From UHGV virus genome UHGV-0100061: 11,055 nt of DNA. One strand, given 5' to 3'. A program made the position numbers and the translations under genes. Shown one piece after another: positions 1 to 10,108 of the stretch. This DNA comes from a virus. Within the stretch, counting starts at the first letter, position 1, and every line of letters starts with the position of its first letter. Under the pieces are notes generated by a model that saw only the letters and a list, made by a program, of their open reading frames with translations, did no database searches and was not told where the DNA came from.

Positions 1-133
1 GTTCATCTATCGAATCGCCACACTCACAAGAATGAGTGGCAGATATAGCCTGGTGGTTCAGACGACGCATTTTTATTGCTGTATTGCGCTGTAATTCTTC
101 GATTTCTGATGCTGAATCAATGATGTCTGCCAT
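1..133 (-). CDS. DksA/TraR-family-like small protein, N-terminal 44 codons (ORF runs off the window start)
   Basis: Manual minus-strand translation from ATG at 133..131 gives MADIIDSASEIEELQRNTAIKMRRLNHQAISATHSCECGDSIDE. The CxCG-x2-I-x-E stretch resembles the first zinc-finger knuckle of TraR/DksA proteins. In-frame TAA lies 3 codons upstream of the ATG. SD is weak and too close (GGAAG adjacent to ATG). Family assignment is from memory. Confidence 0.4.
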   Translation of the reverse strand, partial: MADIIDSASEIEELQRNTAIKMRRLNHQAISATHSCECGDSIDE

Positions 134-182
134 CTTCCATTAATCTCTGAATTGTTGGTTAATACGCTTGAGGGTGAATGCG

Positions 183-209
183 AATAATAAAAAAGGAGCC
201 TGTAGCTCC
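183..209 (-). terminator. Rho-independent terminator downstream of the DGQHR gene
   Basis: Plus strand 195..209 is ggagc-ctgta-gctcc (5-bp GC-rich stem, 5-nt loop), preceded on the plus strand by an A-rich run (184..194). On the minus strand this reads hairpin followed by TTTTTTATTATT. Confidence 0.5.
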
Positions 210-286
210 ATGAAGATTTTGTTTTTCATGCTCACCGTTCCTTAAAGACGCCGTACAGCATGCTGATATGAGACAATGTTGATTCA

Positions 287-1351
287 TTAAGTTGATTCCA
301 GACTTCCTTTGGTAAAAGCTTGTATCAGTCTGTTTGCTGCTGCTTTCTGCGCTGCCACATTGGCAATAACAGATAGTTTTTCCTGGCTGGCTTTCGTGCA
401 GATCCCCGCCCAGTTATCCATCAGAAAAAAATCCTCTCTTTCTGCAGAGCTGGTAGTTGCACATAGTTTTTCGATCATAGAAGTTATTTCTGCGATGGAA
501 TGATTAACCATCATCTGTTGAACCGCAAAACCGAAAGCGTTAATCATTACTCCATGGAACTGAATATAATCGCGCTTGTACGTAGCGTGGTGTACACCAT
601 GTCGGATTGAGTCAATCTGAGTTAGTGTAATCCATGCCTCCCAGACAGATTCTATATATCCCATTTCAAGTTGTTGATTGCCGTTCCTGGCGAACTTTGA
701 CGTTGCATCAGTGAGTGCCTTGAAACTCACCCACATATTACTTTTTAATGGCACTACGTTGTGTTCAAAATCGGTTATATCGGCAAATACAGTATGTTGG
801 GTCAGGAAGGATATCATTCCCTGAGCAATATCATCCCGGCCGTTATACGCCATATTGATGGTCGCTGATGGCTTAGAAACGTTGTTATTTATGTCCGAAA
901 AGAACTGCTGCCGGGTTTTTAGCGGCAGATTCATTGTAAGCATCATGGGAACCATGAGCGTTGATGGGGAACTTCGGCAAAATATCTCAATGCCAGCTGC
1001 ACGATGTTGACCATCAAAAAGTTTTATTTCGGCGTCGAGGGGAATTCTGGCTATACCAACATTTGTGTTGCCAAACGGTACAAATTCTATATTCGAATCA
1101 CAGTTACCTACGAGAGGGGGAATGATAAAAGGCTCATTTCTTGAGTCTGCGTTAGTGAGATAATTTAAAAATTTTCGTACTCGATTTGGATTAATTTCTC
1201 GCTGAGAGCGTTCCAGTGTATGGCCGTAATTATCTGAAGCGAGGAAACGAGCCAGCGATCTTCCTGGTATGGTAAGGAAGAGTGTAACAGTACCACCCTG
1301 TACACCTTGCGATGCCGGAAATTCGAATGAATGATTACCAACCTGACTCAT
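287..1351 (-). CDS. DGQHR-domain protein, DndB-like (ParB/sulfiredoxin-like superfamily); stand-alone cargo gene
   Basis: 354-aa ORF. N-terminal FEFPASQGVQGGTVTLFLTIPGRSLARFL and downstream LERSQREINPNRV...KLFDGQHRAAGI match the hallmark DndB/DGQHR signature (FPA..G.QGG...Y, QR, DGQHR). Strong SD (AGGAGG, plus 1356..1361 complement) 4 nt before ATG at 1351..1349. Start overlaps the upstream ORF stop as ATGA. Confidence 0.85.
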   Translation of the reverse strand: MSQVGNHSFEFPASQGVQGGTVTLFLTIPGRSLARFLASDNYGHTLERSQREINPNRVRKFLNYLTNADSRNEPFIIPPLVGNCDSNIEFVPFGNTNVGIARIPLDAEIKLFDGQHRAAGIEIFCRSSPSTLMVPMMLTMNLPLKTRQQFFSDINNNVSKPSATINMAYNGRDDIAQGMISFLTQHTVFADITDFEHNVVPLKSNMWVSFKALTDATSKFARNGNQQLEMGYIESVWEAWITLTQIDSIRHGVHHATYKRDYIQFHGVMINAFGFAVQQMMVNHSIAEITSMIEKLCATTSSAEREDFFLMDNWAGICTKASQEKLSVIANVAAQKAAANRLIQAFTKGSLEST

Positions 1352-1506
1352 ATATCCTCCTGTTTATTATTTATCTTCTCAGCCAGCCCCTGTGCTTTCA
1401 GTGGATTTCTGATAACAGAAAGACCGGGAAATACCCAGCCTCGCTTTGTAATGGAGTAGACGAAAGTGATCGCGCCTACCCGGATATTATCGTGAGGATG
1501 CGTCAT
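1348..1506 (-). CDS. Small orf60a-like protein (52 aa), translationally coupled between exo and the DGQHR gene
   Basis: Manual translation: [55 protein letters not shown] 1506..1504 overlaps the exo stop (ATGA); stop 1350..1348 overlaps the DGQHR start (ATGA). N-terminal part resembles lambda orf60a as recalled. Absent from the supplied ORF track (below its length cutoff). Confidence 0.5.
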
Positions 1507-2183
1507 CGCCATTGCTCCCCAAATACAAAACCAATTTCAGCCAGTGCCTCGTCCATTTTTTCGATGAACTCCGGCACCATCTCGTCAAAACTCGCCATGT
1601 ACTTTTCATCCCGCTCAACCACGACATAATGCAGTCCTTCACGCTTCATACGCGGGTCATAGTTGGCAAAGTACCAGGCATCTTTTCGTGTCACCCACAT
1701 GCTGTACTGCACCTGGGCCATGTAAGCCGACTTTATGGCCTCGAAACCACCGAGCCGGAACTTCATGAAATCCCGGGAGGTAAACGGGCATTTCAGCTCA
1801 AGGCCATTGCCGTCACTGCATAAACCATCGGGAGAGCAGGCGGTGCGCATACTTTCGTCGCGATAGATGATCGGGGATTCGGTAACATTCACGCCGGAAG
1901 TGAATTCAAACAGAGTTCTGGCGTCGTTCTCGTACTGTTTTCCCCAGGCCAGCGCCTTAGCATTAACTTCCGGAGCCACACCGGTGCAAACCTCAGCCAG
2001 CAGGGTGTGGAAGTAGGACATTTTCATGTCAGGCCACTTCTTTCCTGAGCGGGGCTTTGCTATCACGTTGTGAACTTCTGAAGCGGTGATGACGCCGAGC
2101 CGTAATTTGTGCCATGTATCATCCCCCTGTTCGACAGCTCTCACGTCGATCCCGGTACGCTGCACGATAATGTCCGGTGTCAT
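1503..2183 (-). CDS. exo: Lambda-type exonuclease (Red alpha)
   Basis: 226-aa [25 protein letters not shown]...GFVFGEQWR, recognised as lambda Exo over its full length. Start overlaps the bet stop (ATGA at 2180..2183). Confidence 0.95.
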
Positions 2184-2970: not shown

Positions 2971-3387
2971 TTATACCTCTGAATCAATATCAACCTGGTG
3001 GCGGGCAATAGTTTCAACCATGTACCGGATGTGTTCTGCCATGCGCTCCTGAAACTCAACATCGTCATCAAACGCACGGGTAATGGCTTTTTTGCTGGCC
3101 CCGTGGCGTTGCAAATGATCGATGCATAGCGATTCAAACAGGTGCTGGGGCAGGCCTTTTTCCATGTCGTCTGCCAGTTCTGCCTCTTTCTCTTCACGGG
3201 CGATCTGCTGGTAGTGACGCGCCCAGCTCTGAGCCTCAAGACGATCCTGAATGTAATAAGCGTTCATGGCTGAACTCCTGAAATAGCTGTGAAAATATCG
3301 TCCGCGAAATGCCGGGCTGATTAGGAAAACAGGGAAGGGGGGTAGTGAATGCTTTTGCTTGATCTCAGTTTCAGTATTAATATCCAT
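2971..3387 (-). CDS. gam: Gam, RecBCD inhibitor (long form; short form likely starts at 3267)
   Basis: 138-aa ORF with the lambda Gam sequence. Internal ATG at 3267..3265 ([13 protein letters not shown]...) has a strong SD (CAGGAG) about 7 nt upstream, whereas the 3387 start has none. Confidence 0.9.
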
Positions 3388-3485
3388 TTTTTATAAGCGT
3401 CGACGGCCTCACGAAACATCTTTTCATCGCCAATAAAAGTGGCGATAGTGAATTTAGTCTGGATAGCCATAAGTGTTTGATCCAT
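3321..3485 (-). CDS. kil: Kil host-killing (FtsZ-inhibiting) protein
   Basis: [43 protein letters not shown]... with AGGAG SD 9 nt upstream. Overlaps the cIII 3' end and the long gam 5' end as in lambda. Exact start (3485 vs the internal Met at 3470) is uncertain. Confidence 0.7.
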
Positions 3486-3618
3486 TTTTTGGGACTCCTG
3501 GCTGATTAAGTATGTCGATAAGGCGTTTCCATCCGTCACGTAATTTACGGGTGATTCGTTCAAGTAAAGATTCGGAAGGGCAGCCAGCAACAGGCCACCC
3601 TGCAATGGCATATTGCAT
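3454..3618 (-). CDS. cIII: cIII, inhibitor of FtsH-mediated cII degradation
   Basis: Manual translation from ATG 3618..3616: [54 protein letters not shown] (54 aa), stop at 3456..3454. SD AAGGAG upstream. In a different frame from the 96-aa track ORF 3321..3611. Confidence 0.85.
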   Translation of the reverse strand: MQYAIAGWPVAGCPSESLLERITRKLRDGWKRLIDILNQPGVPKNGSNTYGYPD

Positions 3619-3690: not shown

Positions 3691-4059
3691 TCAGGCGGCT
3701 TTGATAGTCATATCATCTGGATCAAATATTCCTGATGTATCGATATCGGTAATTCTTATTCCTTCGCTACCATCCATTGGAGGCCATCCTTCCTGACCAT
3801 TTCCATCATTCCAGTCGAACTCACACACAACACCATATGCATTTAAGTCGCTTGAAATTGCTATAAGCAGAGCATGTTGCGCCAGCATGATTAATACAGC
3901 ATTTAATACAGAGCCGTGTTTATTGAGTCGGTATTCAGAGTCTGACCAGAAATTATTAATCTGGTGAAGTTTTTCCTCTGTCATTACGTCATGATCGATT
4001 TCAATTTCTATTGATGCTTTCCAGTCGTAATCAATGATGTATTTTTTGATGTTTGACAT
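3691..4059 (-). CDS. ea10: Ea10 (lambda early-left protein, ssb-like)
   Basis: 122-aa ORF MSNIKKYIIDYDWKASIEIEIDHDV...DPDDMTIKAA, recognised as lambda Ea10. Position downstream of cIII in the pL operon matches lambda. Confidence 0.8.
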   Translation of the reverse strand: MSNIKKYIIDYDWKASIEIEIDHDVMTEEKLHQINNFWSDSEYRLNKHGSVLNAVLIMLAQHALLIAISSDLNAYGVVCEFDWNDGNGQEGWPPMDGSEGIRITDIDTSGIFDPDDMTIKAA

Positions 4060-4319: not shown

Positions 4320-4901
4320 ATGAACAACTCATGGTGGCAGGAACTAATGCATTTTTTCCTGCAAGGAATGACACTTAAACAGTTGATTCATATGCTAATC
4401 ATCCTAATCATATTGATTATTGTTATGCCTGTAAGCGTAAAAGAATGGATAAACCTGCATAATCCAGAAATCCTTCCTCATTACTGGATGTATTACATCC
4501 TGTTGTTTTGCGTTAGCTATGTGCTTAACGGCGTTGTTAATTCCGCTTATCACGCTGTGACTGAAAGAATTGAGATATTCGCTGCTCAGAAGCGCAAATC
4601 TAAAGAAGAGAAATACGTGCAAGATTTGTTTGATTCGTTAACTCTTGGAGAAAGAGCGTATTTGGCATTCGCTGTAGCCGCTAATAACCAGCTAAAGACA
4701 GAAAAGGGAAGCCCTGAAGCAATCTCATTGCTCGAAAAAGGGCTTCTTATTCGGGTACCTTCTGCTACTGGATATCCTGAAATCGACCGTTTTGTTATCC
4801 CGGAACGCTATAGAAATGAGTGCTACATTAGGTTTGCTGGGAAGAAAGACAGTCTTATGGATGAACTTATCGCTCAGGATAAGCATGGCAAAAACAAGTA
4901 A
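4320..4901 (+). CDS. sieB: SieB superinfection exclusion protein
   Basis: 193-aa ORF MNNSWWQELMHFFLQGMTLKQLIHMLIILIILIIVMPVSVKEWINLH..., recognised as lambda SieB, with an N-terminal transmembrane segment. Plus strand, converging on N as in lambda. Confidence 0.9.
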   Translation: MNNSWWQELMHFFLQGMTLKQLIHMLIILIILIIVMPVSVKEWINLHNPEILPHYWMYYILLFCVSYVLNGVVNSAYHAVTERIEIFAAQKRKSKEEKYVQDLFDSLTLGERAYLAFAVAANNQLKTEKGSPEAISLLEKGLLIRVPSATGYPEIDRFVIPERYRNECYIRFAGKKDSLMDELIAQDKHGKNK

Positions 4902-8798: not shown

Positions 8799-9239
8799 AT
8801 GAAAAAACTAACCTTTGAAATTCGATCTCCAGCACATCAGCAAAACGCTATTCACGCAGTACAGCAAATCCTTCCAGACCCAACCAAACCAATCGTAGTA
8901 ACCATTCAGGAACGCAACCGCAGCTTAGACCAAAACAGGAAGCTATGGGCCTGCTTAGGTGACGTCTCTCGTCAGGTTGAATGGCATGGTCGCTGGCTGG
9001 ATGCAGAAAGCTGGAAGTGTGTGTTTACCGCAGCATTAAAGCAGCAGGATGTTGTTCCTAACCTTGCCGGGAATGGCTTTGTGGTAATAGGCCAGTCAAC
9101 CAGCAGGATGCGTGTAAGCGAATTTGCGGAGCTATTAGAGCTTATACAGGCATTCGGTACAGAGCGTGGCGTTAAGTGGTCAGACGAAGCGCGACTGGCT
9201 CTGGAGTGGAAAGCGCGATGGGGAGACAGGGCTGCATGA
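8799..9239 (+). CDS. ninB: NinB (Orf-family recombination mediator)
   Basis: 146-aa protein from ATG 8799 (MKKLTFEIRSPAHQQNAIHAVQQILPDPTKPIVVTIQERNRSLDQNRKLW...), recognised as lambda NinB. The track ORF start at 8781 is a non-ATG upstream extension. Confidence 0.9.
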   Translation: MKKLTFEIRSPAHQQNAIHAVQQILPDPTKPIVVTIQERNRSLDQNRKLWACLGDVSRQVEWHGRWLDAESWKCVFTAALKQQDVVPNLAGNGFVVIGQSTSRMRVSEFAELLELIQAFGTERGVKWSDEARLALEWKARWGDRAA

Positions 9240-10108
9240 TAAATGTCGTTAGTTTCTCCGGTGGCAGGACGTCAGCATATTTGCTCTGGCTAATGGAGCA
9301 AAAGCGACGGGCAGGTGAAGACGTGCATTACGTTTTCATGGATACAGGTTGTGAACATCCAATGACATATCGGTTTGTCAGGGAAGTTGTGAAGTTCTGG
9401 GATATACCGCTCACCGTATTGCAGGTTGATATCAACCCAGAGCTTGGGCAGCCAAATGGTTATACGGTATGGGAACCAAAGGATATTCAGACGCGACTGC
9501 CTGTTCTGAAGCCATTTATCGATATGGTAAAGAAATATGGCACTCCATACGTCGGCGGCGCGTTCTGCACTGACAGATTAAAACTCGTTCCCTTCACCAA
9601 ATACTGTGATGACCATTTCGGGCGAGGGAATTACACCACGTGGATTGGCATCAGAGCTGATGAACCGAAGCGGCTAAAGCCAAAGCCTGGAATCAGATAT
9701 CTTGCTGAACTGTCAGACTTTGAGAAGGAAGATATCCTCGCATGGTGGAAGCAACAACCATTCGATTTGCAAATACCGGAACATCTCGGTAACTGCATAT
9801 TCTGCATTAAAAAATCAACGCAAAAAATCGGACTTGCCTGCAAAGATGAGGAGGGATTGCAGCGTGTTTTTAATGAGGTCATCACGGGATCGCATGTGCG
9901 TGACGGACATCGGGAAACGCCAAAGGAGATTATGTACCGAGGAAGAATGTCGCTGGACGGTATCGCGAAAATGTATTCAGAAAATGATTATCAAGCCCTG
10001 TATCAGGACATGGTACGAGCTAAAAGATTCGATACCGGCTCTTGTTCTGAGTCATGCGAAATATTTGGAGGGCAGCTTGATTTCGACTTCGGGAGGGAGG
10101 CTGCATGA
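9236..10108 (+). CDS. ninC: NinC (PAPS-reductase-like nin-region protein)
   Basis: 290-aa protein from ATG 9236 ([42 protein letters not shown]...), with an SGG phosphoadenosine-phosphosulfate-reductase-like motif. ATGA overlap with the ninB stop. Recognised as lambda NinC. Confidence 0.9.

Follow-up and report, generated by a model that had tools for sequence, protein, structure and literature searches.

A lambdoid orf60a gene followed by a DGQHR-domain gene, and the exchangeable slot in which the latter resides

What kind of gene is the short open reading frame (ORF) that stands between exo and the gene for a DGQHR-domain protein in the virus genome UHGV-0100061, and how did the latter gene come to occupy that position? 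A lambdoid prophage has its early-left (pL) operon, with the gene order gam-bet-exo-orf60a-slot-orf73, on the minus strand of the stretch of DNA analysed here (11,055 nucleotides; hereafter the window), and the slot holds the DGQHR gene. An earlier note on this DNA took the ORF to be orf60a-like, placed inside it a mosaic junction at which cargo had been inserted, and suggested that translation of the DGQHR gene is coupled to the Red operon. We consider it likely, with good confidence, that the ORF is a genuine orf60a gene followed by a cassette that replaces orf63 and orf61 in a recurrently used slot, that this cassette is expressed from pL in an N-dependent manner, and that its product acts as a ParB-fold switch.

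The orf60a gene

The limits of the ORF can be read directly from the minus strand, and they are those described in the earlier note, namely 52 codons that open on the exo stop codon and close on the DGQHR start codon by way of two ATGA tetranucleotides. The exo gene (1503..2183, minus strand), which codes for the lambda exonuclease (226 amino acids; YqaJ domain, E 4.7e-30; nucleotide identity of about 97% to lambda and related phages), ends in GAG CAA TGG CGA TGA, and the orf60a ATG (1506-1504) lies inside the final ATGA (1503..1506), which also holds the exo stop (TGA, 1505-1503). At the other end, the orf60a TGA (1350-1348) overlaps the DGQHR ATG (1351-1349) within the ATGA at 1348-1351. As the bet stop and the exo start are likewise joined by ATGA (2180-2183), the gene chain displays three consecutive four-nucleotide overlaps. 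The ORF is not in fact absent from the six-frame listing, as had been stated; it appears there as 1348-1512 (54 amino acids) once the threshold is set below the default of 60 amino acids. That longer form begins at an in-frame ATG at 1512, two codons upstream of ATG-1506. The latter is the better start, because a GGGGAG Shine-Dalgarno sequence lies 7 nucleotides from it and only 1 nucleotide from ATG-1512, and because, at an E. coli locus identical to this one, the Prokaryotic Genome Annotation Pipeline (PGAP) makes the same choice (WP_039720322.1, a DUF1317 family protein; 159 nucleotides, with four-nucleotide overlaps on both sides).

The product of the ORF at 1348..1506 (minus strand) matches the Pfam family DUF1317 (PF07026) over the first 49 of the 60 profile positions, scoring 103.8 bits where the cut-off is 22.3 (E 4.2e-30), and PHROG 1998 with an E-value of 2.4e-30, both of which, along with the PGAP annotation, bear out its assignment to orf60a. 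Like its counterpart in lambda (NP_040615.1), the gene directly follows exo with the same ATGA overlap (lambda exo 31348-32028, orf60a 31169-31351), and 45 of the first 48 residues are identical, the window differing by V19I, R40G and E44K. Both also contain the same internal hairpin, hereafter t1, a predicted intrinsic terminator at 1410..1442 (minus strand) with a 9-bp stem (1442-1420) and a T-rich tail. Unlike the window gene, that of lambda codes for 60 amino acids with the tail RGAVCTKHLLLS and overlaps orf63 by 28 nucleotides in another frame; the window gene codes for 52 amino acids, ends in QEDI, and closes by a four-nucleotide overlap on the next start codon. The earlier statement that the N-terminal 40 or so residues are lambda-like and the C-terminus is different stands in its first part; the homology, however, reaches residue 48, as the sequence AEKINNK before the tail is the normal one in the common orf60a of the Shiga toxin (Stx) phage type, where lambda has AEEINNK. 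The difference from the lambda type is confined to the last four residues (QEDI against R(G/E)AVCTKHLLLS). While the window protein lacks the length of 60 residues and the CTKHLLLS tail of the lambda type, the tail is in practice not a defining feature of the family, as DUF1317 displays at least 10 variants of it. As a separate observation, codon 40 of the window gene (1387-1389, minus strand) codes for Gly, where nearly all other family members have Arg (in the context KAQRLAE); Gly was found in only two of 80 viral loci.

Several further lines of evidence bear on whether the ORF is a protein gene. A test of selection among the 80 IMG/VR loci that carry orf60a was uninformative with only 12 variable sites, and because these viral copies are too alike, we used diverged prophage homologues (L095 and L097) instead. 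Against these, the annotated frame has a ratio of nonsynonymous to synonymous changes (pN/pS) of 0.16-0.24, and the other two frames give 1.1-2.4. An AlphaFold (AF2) model built on the family alignment has a predicted local distance difference test score of 87 and displays three strands and a helix (residues 35-51), in agreement with the published fold of lambda Orf60a (PMC8614690). [quoted passage not shown] DNA binding by Orf60a has been proposed in the literature on the basis of modelling alone. Hence, judging from its sequence, 1348-1506 appears to be a genuine protein gene, orf60a of the DUF1317 family, with a small product predicted to consist of three beta-strands and a helix.

The family shows variation at its other end as well. 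Many DUF1317 proteins (cluster representatives P0161-P0201) have unrelated N-termini ahead of the GAITF motif, so that breakpoints are also frequent near codon 10, toward the 5' end. In an E. coli prophage remnant, exo is deleted and the DUF1317 gene (L091:3414-3659) abuts genes of the nin region.

The two boundaries of the DGQHR cassette

The earlier note had proposed an alignment with lambda orf60a and its flanks as the means of locating the breakpoint. We aligned the locus with lambda and phage PhiR47_2 and compared the 80 IMG/VR loci, which display only two states between orf60a and orf73. In the one, with orf63 and orf61, 618 nucleotides separate the orf60a start from an anchor in the 3' end of orf61, and orf60a codes for 60 amino acids; in the other, with the DGQHR gene, the distance to the same anchor is 1,254 nucleotides and orf60a codes for 52 amino acids. 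At the left junction the orf63 allele reads AATAAAC G GGAGG CGG T ATG CAC and the DGQHR allele reads AATAAAC A GGAGG ATA T ATG AGT, with the DGQHR ATG standing at exactly the position of the orf63 ATG (lambda 31196). In a site-by-site scan of 31 DGQHR and 51 orf63 alleles, the first fixed difference falls at nucleotide +145 of orf60a, i.e. window position 1361, which lies in the ribosome-binding site, 10 nucleotides ahead of the orf63 start-codon position. Thus, relative to lambda-type phages, the mosaic junction does lie within the ORF, in its 3' end, and on the left the breakpoint falls together with the orf63 ribosome-binding site and start codon. The junction (1348..1361, minus strand) comprises the AGGAGG Shine-Dalgarno sequence (1361-1356), a spacer of 4 nucleotides and the ATGA (1351-1348), and also encodes the orf60a tail, Q-E-D-I-stop; this ATGA is identical in all 34 DGQHR-bearing loci examined. 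A single-nucleotide polymorphism at +54 of orf60a (window 1452, minus strand; ATT, Ile19, against GTT, Val19) is linked to the cassette, being found in 27 of the 31 DGQHR alleles and in 2 of the 51 orf63 alleles; upstream of +54 there is no fixed difference in orf60a between the two sets.

On the right, sequence specific to the DGQHR cassette continues to about position 268 and includes a non-coding tail of 19 nucleotides (268..286, minus strand) after the DGQHR stop codon. There follows a remnant of the 3' end of orf61 (right junction and remnant 232..267, minus strand; the protein ends in ISMLYGVFKER), which can be aligned only in patches over 267-255 but firmly from 254 downward (ACGGCGTCTTTAAGGAACGGTGA). 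Further downstream, the locus has kept a conserved small ORF of 30 amino acids (140..229, minus strand, from ATG 229), which contains a T-run hairpin (209-195), and the start of orf73 at 133. The last of these (2..133, minus strand) is a zinc-finger gene of the TraR/DksA type, cut off by the edge of the window; the 44 available residues match TIGR02419 with an E-value of 1.2e-4, and its counterparts in matching genomes are annotated as TraR/DksA. About 1,094 nucleotides (268-1361) hence stand in place of about 458, which make up orf63 and all of orf61 except its last 7-11 codons. The DGQHR cassette is accordingly a replacement of orf63 and nearly all of orf61, and not the insertion of cargo that had been supposed.

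The cassette would then be a single-gene unit, made up of a strong Shine-Dalgarno sequence, the DGQHR gene and the 19-nucleotide tail. As DGQHR proteins begin with Met-Ser-Lys/Gln-Val-Gly (ATGAGy), their genes provide a TGA to whatever frame precedes them, and we posit that at this locus the ATGAGy of the cassette supplies the TGA that closes the orf60a frame, giving the 52-residue form with its QEDI tail. The folded core of the orf60a product, residues 1-48, would be unaffected by the cassette.

The slot downstream of orf60a

Similar exchanges are seen across the DUF1317 family. In 96 cluster representatives the proteins share a core ending in (E/K)INNK(R/Q), after which at least 10 different tails occur. 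We followed three of these: the tail GLYD goes with a gene for a phage N6-adenine methyltransferase (Pfam Dam E 2e-56; TIGR01712 above its cut-off) that overlaps orf60a by 8 nucleotides; the tail ESV goes with a gene for a protein of 250 amino acids, joined to orf60a by ATGA (4 nucleotides); and the tail GGLYAQSISR goes with orf63, with an overlap of 23 nucleotides. In all three, the first codon of the cassette lies 9-10 nucleotides past the AATAAAC. The Dam and 250-residue (PHROG 887) cassettes resemble the DGQHR cassette in their left boundary, in the downstream orf73 block and in giving orf60a a short tail of its own (GLYD or ESV); they differ from it in their proteins and in that orf61, in its 71-residue form, is kept after them and is lost only with the DGQHR cassette. 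We propose that the conserved orf60a on one side and the block of the orf61 3' end, the downstream terminator and orf73 on the other could supply the homology for cassette swapping.

Among 5,426 complete E. coli genomes, with a match over at least 80% of the interval from orf60a to orf73 as the criterion, the arrangement with orf63 and orf61 was found in 2,871, that with the DGQHR gene in 283 (about 5%), that with the Dam gene in 244 and that with the gene for the 250-residue protein in 95. Used alone as a query, the DGQHR gene matches 284 of these genomes, and it adjoins a DUF1317 gene in every match listed. In many prophages the gene immediately after DUF1317 is that for the phage Dam methyltransferase (L088:3655-4212, L095:3159-3713, L097:3153-3704); diverged ones from Yokenella and metagenomic contigs are among them, and the upstream gene in these is not always exo. 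The 250-residue slot protein, as encoded with an ATGA overlap in an E. coli prophage remnant (L091:3656-4408), matches PHROG 887, which is labelled as a queuine tRNA-ribosyltransferase, with an E-value of 5.5e-99. It has no match in Pfam, NCBIfam, PDB or PADLOC, leaving the queuine label unconfirmed, and the best 120 of its 6,182 homologues are unnamed, hypothetical or uncharacterised. The label might at most be a lead toward a DpdA-like DNA transglycosylase; were the gene DpdA-like, this would be of interest given that another occupant of the slot is DpdB-like.

When phage genomes were searched at the protein level, a comparable gene pair was recovered in the Salmonella phage SPN1S (Uetakevirus) and its relatives. 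The DUF1317 gene of SPN1S has exactly 52 codons and is 63% identical to that of the window without gaps, and its TGA overlaps the ATG of a DGQHR gene (GCA GCA TGA GCA AGG) whose product is 65% identical to that of the window. The architecture and lengths of the two genes (SPN1S_0034 and SPN1S_0033) thus match the window pair. Unlike the window, SPN1S belongs to the epsilon15-like podovirus lineage, has a transcriptional activator gene in place of exo upstream, and has an MT-A70-type DNA methyltransferase gene after the DGQHR gene, with a four-nucleotide overlap. As to the DGQHR gene of SPN1S itself (NC_016761, L098:3501-4568), RefSeq places its start at 3573, and homology together with the ATGA indicates a start at 3501, 24 codons (72 nucleotides) upstream. 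In the closest homologue from outside E. coli (73%, L084), an MT-A70 gene comes after the DGQHR gene, with a gene of the orf63 family next in line. In Klebsiella and Serratia prophages it follows an unrelated gene, coding for an HTH_ParB protein, a 44-residue membrane peptide or an Rv2179c-like exonuclease, and still overlaps the upstream stop codon by ATGA (L085, L099) or GTGA (L087). Diverged DUF1317 genes of 49-53 codons lie directly upstream of Dam genes, one with an ATGA overlap and another ending 2 nucleotides before the next gene. These contexts suggest that a short DUF1317 gene abutting the next gene is the general design, of which the 60-residue lambda form overlapping orf63 is one variant. 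In three loci a gene with a dATP/dGTP pyrophosphohydrolase domain (PF04447/DUF550) lies near the DGQHR gene, namely in an E. coli prophage (L003:8074-8730), a Klebsiella prophage (L085:5325-6347) and a Klebsiella phage (L099:4070-4978).

Two other origins of the ORF have to be weighed against this picture. It might be the 52-residue remnant of a lambda-type orf60a into which a foreign DGQHR gene was recently inserted, with accidental truncation and a fortuitous ATGA. A single recent event would accord with the near-uniformity of the DGQHR allele (at least 99% identity throughout the 284 E. coli genomes in which it occurs), with a GC content that falls to about 42% in the cassette where the Red genes have about 53%, and with our finding no record of this allele or cassette at this site in a search of a phage collection. 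However, 458 nucleotides were replaced, the junction falls exactly on the orf63 ribosome-binding site and ATG just as in the Dam and 250-residue cassettes, and the predicted fold would be complete within 52 residues. Because SPN1S has the same ATGA in a diverged pair and short DUF1317 genes also precede Dam, the 52-residue form is best seen as a conserved arrangement, and we regard accidental truncation as quite unlikely. Still less probable, to our mind, is that the ORF is not a functional protein gene, the segment having been kept for the t1 hairpin (presumably tL3), for spacing and for ribosome-binding signals, with the frame being incidental or a leader. The hairpin in the middle of the ORF is stable (-16.6 kcal/mol, z -2.9) and is kept in four enterobacterial sequences, nucleotide conservation over it is very high even in diverged homologues, and the ORF always lies directly upstream of a variable gene. 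A non-coding role, however, would not predict the low pN/pS in the annotated frame against values above 1 in the others, nor the gapless amino-acid identity to SPN1S, where 3 of the 9 hairpin pairs are broken and the T run is missing; the confidently modelled fold likewise speaks for a protein, as do reports on lambda and phi24B of deletion phenotypes and ribosome profiling (PMC6213356, PMC8614690). With five sequences, covariation in t1 amounts to one compensatory pair, and we rejected the candidate of a conserved t1 RNA structure beyond enterobacterial lambdoids in view of the three pairs broken in SPN1S.

A genuine orf60a followed by an exchangeable cassette is hence the favoured reading, and the junction itself is ordinary lambdoid mosaicism at a gene boundary, involving a known gene that RefSeq annotates with the same limits. 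In the exo-xis literature, orf60a-orf63-orf61-orf73 is described as a conserved block. What is mildly new is that the orf63 position is an exchangeable slot, occupied by the DGQHR, Dam or 250-residue gene in about 620 complete E. coli genomes, that orf60a gains a cassette-specific tail, and that the 52-residue DUF1317 protein gene, the ATGA and the DGQHR gene are conserved as a succession in a distant phage lineage.

Expression and possible role of the DGQHR gene

The DGQHR cassette lies between t1 and a second predicted terminator, t2 (185-209, minus strand; stem 209-195 and T run), inside the 30-residue ORF before orf73. Both match elements predicted in lambda and phi24B (PMC4195576, Table 4). 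A crude consensus scan found no sigma-70-like promoter upstream of the DGQHR gene on the coding strand. As for t1, we presume that it is the classical lambda tL3, which could not be confirmed from the literature, where tL3 is mentioned with no coordinates. Since it lies between t1 and t2 and no promoter of its own could be detected, the cassette is likely to depend on pL and N for its transcription. This would occur only when N antitermination passes t1, following induction or infection and together with that of the Red genes, and the DGQHR gene would not be expressed in a repressed lysogen. At the level of translation, the AGGAGG of the DGQHR gene is the strongest Shine-Dalgarno sequence of the chain (-10.3 kcal/mol; those of bet, exo and orf60a range from -7.1 to -7.7), and ribosomes might start by re-initiation at the ATGA, by direct loading on AGGAGG, or by both. 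The coupling to the Red operon suggested in the earlier note is plausible and fits both the ATGA overlaps and the negative promoter scan, with the complication that the predicted t1 lies between exo and the DGQHR gene.

The DGQHR protein (287..1351, minus strand; 354 amino acids; stop TAA 289-287) matches the domain model TIGR03187 with 188.8 bits (cut-off 58.85). In its signature motif (1001-1015), D113, G114, Q115 and R117 are invariant and H116 is present in at least 90% of 40 aligned homologues. It also matches PHROG 7901, to which no function is assigned, Pfam DndB (E 3.8e-46) and the PADLOC DndB model (E 4.3e-37), the last being a generic model and the only one of the PADLOC defence-system models to match. 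Family members with 52-73% identity are found widely in prophages of Enterobacterales. The protein probably comprises a putative ParB-fold N-terminal domain and a helical C-terminal part, and from these affinities we take it to be a ParB-fold relative of DndB rather than a true DndB. By analogy to DndB, DpdB or the N-terminal domain of SspE, we posit that it might function as a nucleoside triphosphate (NTP)-dependent DNA-binding switch, which is part of the weakest step of our proposal. DndB has been described as an ATP-dependent repressor of the dnd operon, and binding of ATP/GTP has been demonstrated for another DndB-like protein (PMC12704722). NTP-controlled DNA binding is the property of DndB (TIGR03233, dnd phosphorothioation) and DpdB (Dpd 7-deazaguanine) that the window protein might share; unlike them, it misses the cut-off of the DndB equivalog by a wide margin, lacks partner genes of the dnd or dpd kind, and stands alone in a phage early operon. 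The slot-mates (Dam and the PHROG 887 protein, with its unconfirmed label) and the methylase neighbours in SPN1S and L084 hint at a role in modification or counter-restriction. By this analogy, the DGQHR protein probably acts in phage DNA modification, anti-restriction or regulation, rather than in phosphorothioation itself, and this belongs to the same weakest step of the argument. Literature searches on DndB and lambdoid prophages, on exo-xis and methyltransferases, and on DpdA and lambdoids found nothing relevant. If correct, prophages that are common in E. coli (about 5% of complete genomes) encode in their early operon an orphan DndB/DpdB-like protein with a putative ParB fold, with slot-mates and, elsewhere, methylase neighbours that point to DNA modification or counter-defence.

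The function could be construed differently. Were the gene a true DndB, i.e. a phosphorothioation regulator, the phage might use it to repress or hijack a dnd system of the host; the strong Pfam and PADLOC matches, the presence of the DGQHR motif and the role of DndB as an ATP-dependent repressor of the dnd operon (PMC12704722) all lend themselves to this idea. We rejected it as an assignment, and hold it to be very improbable, as the protein attains only 106.9 bits with the equivalog TIGR03233 against a cut-off of 328 and as no dnd gene flanks it here (the neighbours being orf60a and orf73) or in any homologue context examined, dndA, dndC, dndD and dndE included; in other phages it is methyltransferases, exonucleases or ParB-like proteins that are encoded beside it. 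Alternatively, the prophage might carry the DGQHR gene for anti-phage defence and express it in the lysogen for the protection of the host, as could be argued from its being an accessory gene, common in E. coli, in a variable prophage slot, and from the ParB-fold NTPase domains in the defence proteins SspE (PMC10164549) and GmrSD (PMC4619093). This we consider rather unlikely, since no nuclease or other effector domain was detected in the protein, the sole PADLOC match is the DndB model, the gene has no detected promoter of its own and lies within the repressed pL operon downstream of t1, and its slot-mates are a methylase and the pro-lytic orf63. A broader proposal, doubtful but less so than either of these, is that DUF1317 and DGQHR form a conserved two-gene unit of a small DNA-binding protein and a ParB-fold NTP switch, to which MT-A70 was added in SPN1S and L084, and that the slot is dedicated to cassettes for DNA modification or counter-restriction (Dam, the possible TGT/DpdA-like gene and DGQHR) that are expressed with the Red genes right after induction. 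In that event orf60a would be a common regulator or leader for whichever cassette occupies the slot.

Our preferred reading, a genuine orf60a with a replacement cassette that is expressed from pL and codes for a ParB-fold switch, has points against it too. Position 1361 is only the first visible difference, which leaves the exact crossover unplaced, and the imported tract may begin further upstream; the linked polymorphism in codon 19 and the SPN1S pair would allow a crossover in a near-identical DUF1317 gene of the donor. With an AGGAGG of such strength, the DGQHR gene could be translated independently of orf60a. Both the coupling and the dependence on pL are deductions from the DNA sequence, in part by way of the crude promoter scan mentioned above. 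Lastly, the DGQHR gene is an orphan in the window, which has no methylase, DpdA or dndCDE, and a role in DNA modification is to that extent a guess.

One further gene of the window recalls the phosphorothioation systems. A NinC-like protein (9236-10108, plus strand), about 8 kb from the DndB-like gene, has a PAPS-reductase domain (Pfam E 8.5e-9), of a fold family that includes DndC. The lambda nin region likewise encodes a NinC of the same family, and the co-occurrence of the NinC-like and DndB-like genes is probably meaningless.

Upstream of exo, the early-left operon continues on the minus strand with bet (2180-2965), gam (2971-3387) and cIII (3454-3618). Between cIII and N lie two accessory genes of the prophage, a DUF2528 gene (PHROG 646; 3691-4059, minus strand) and a gene on the plus strand (4320-4901) that matches PHROG 1301 ('superinfection exclusion; inhibits SieB').

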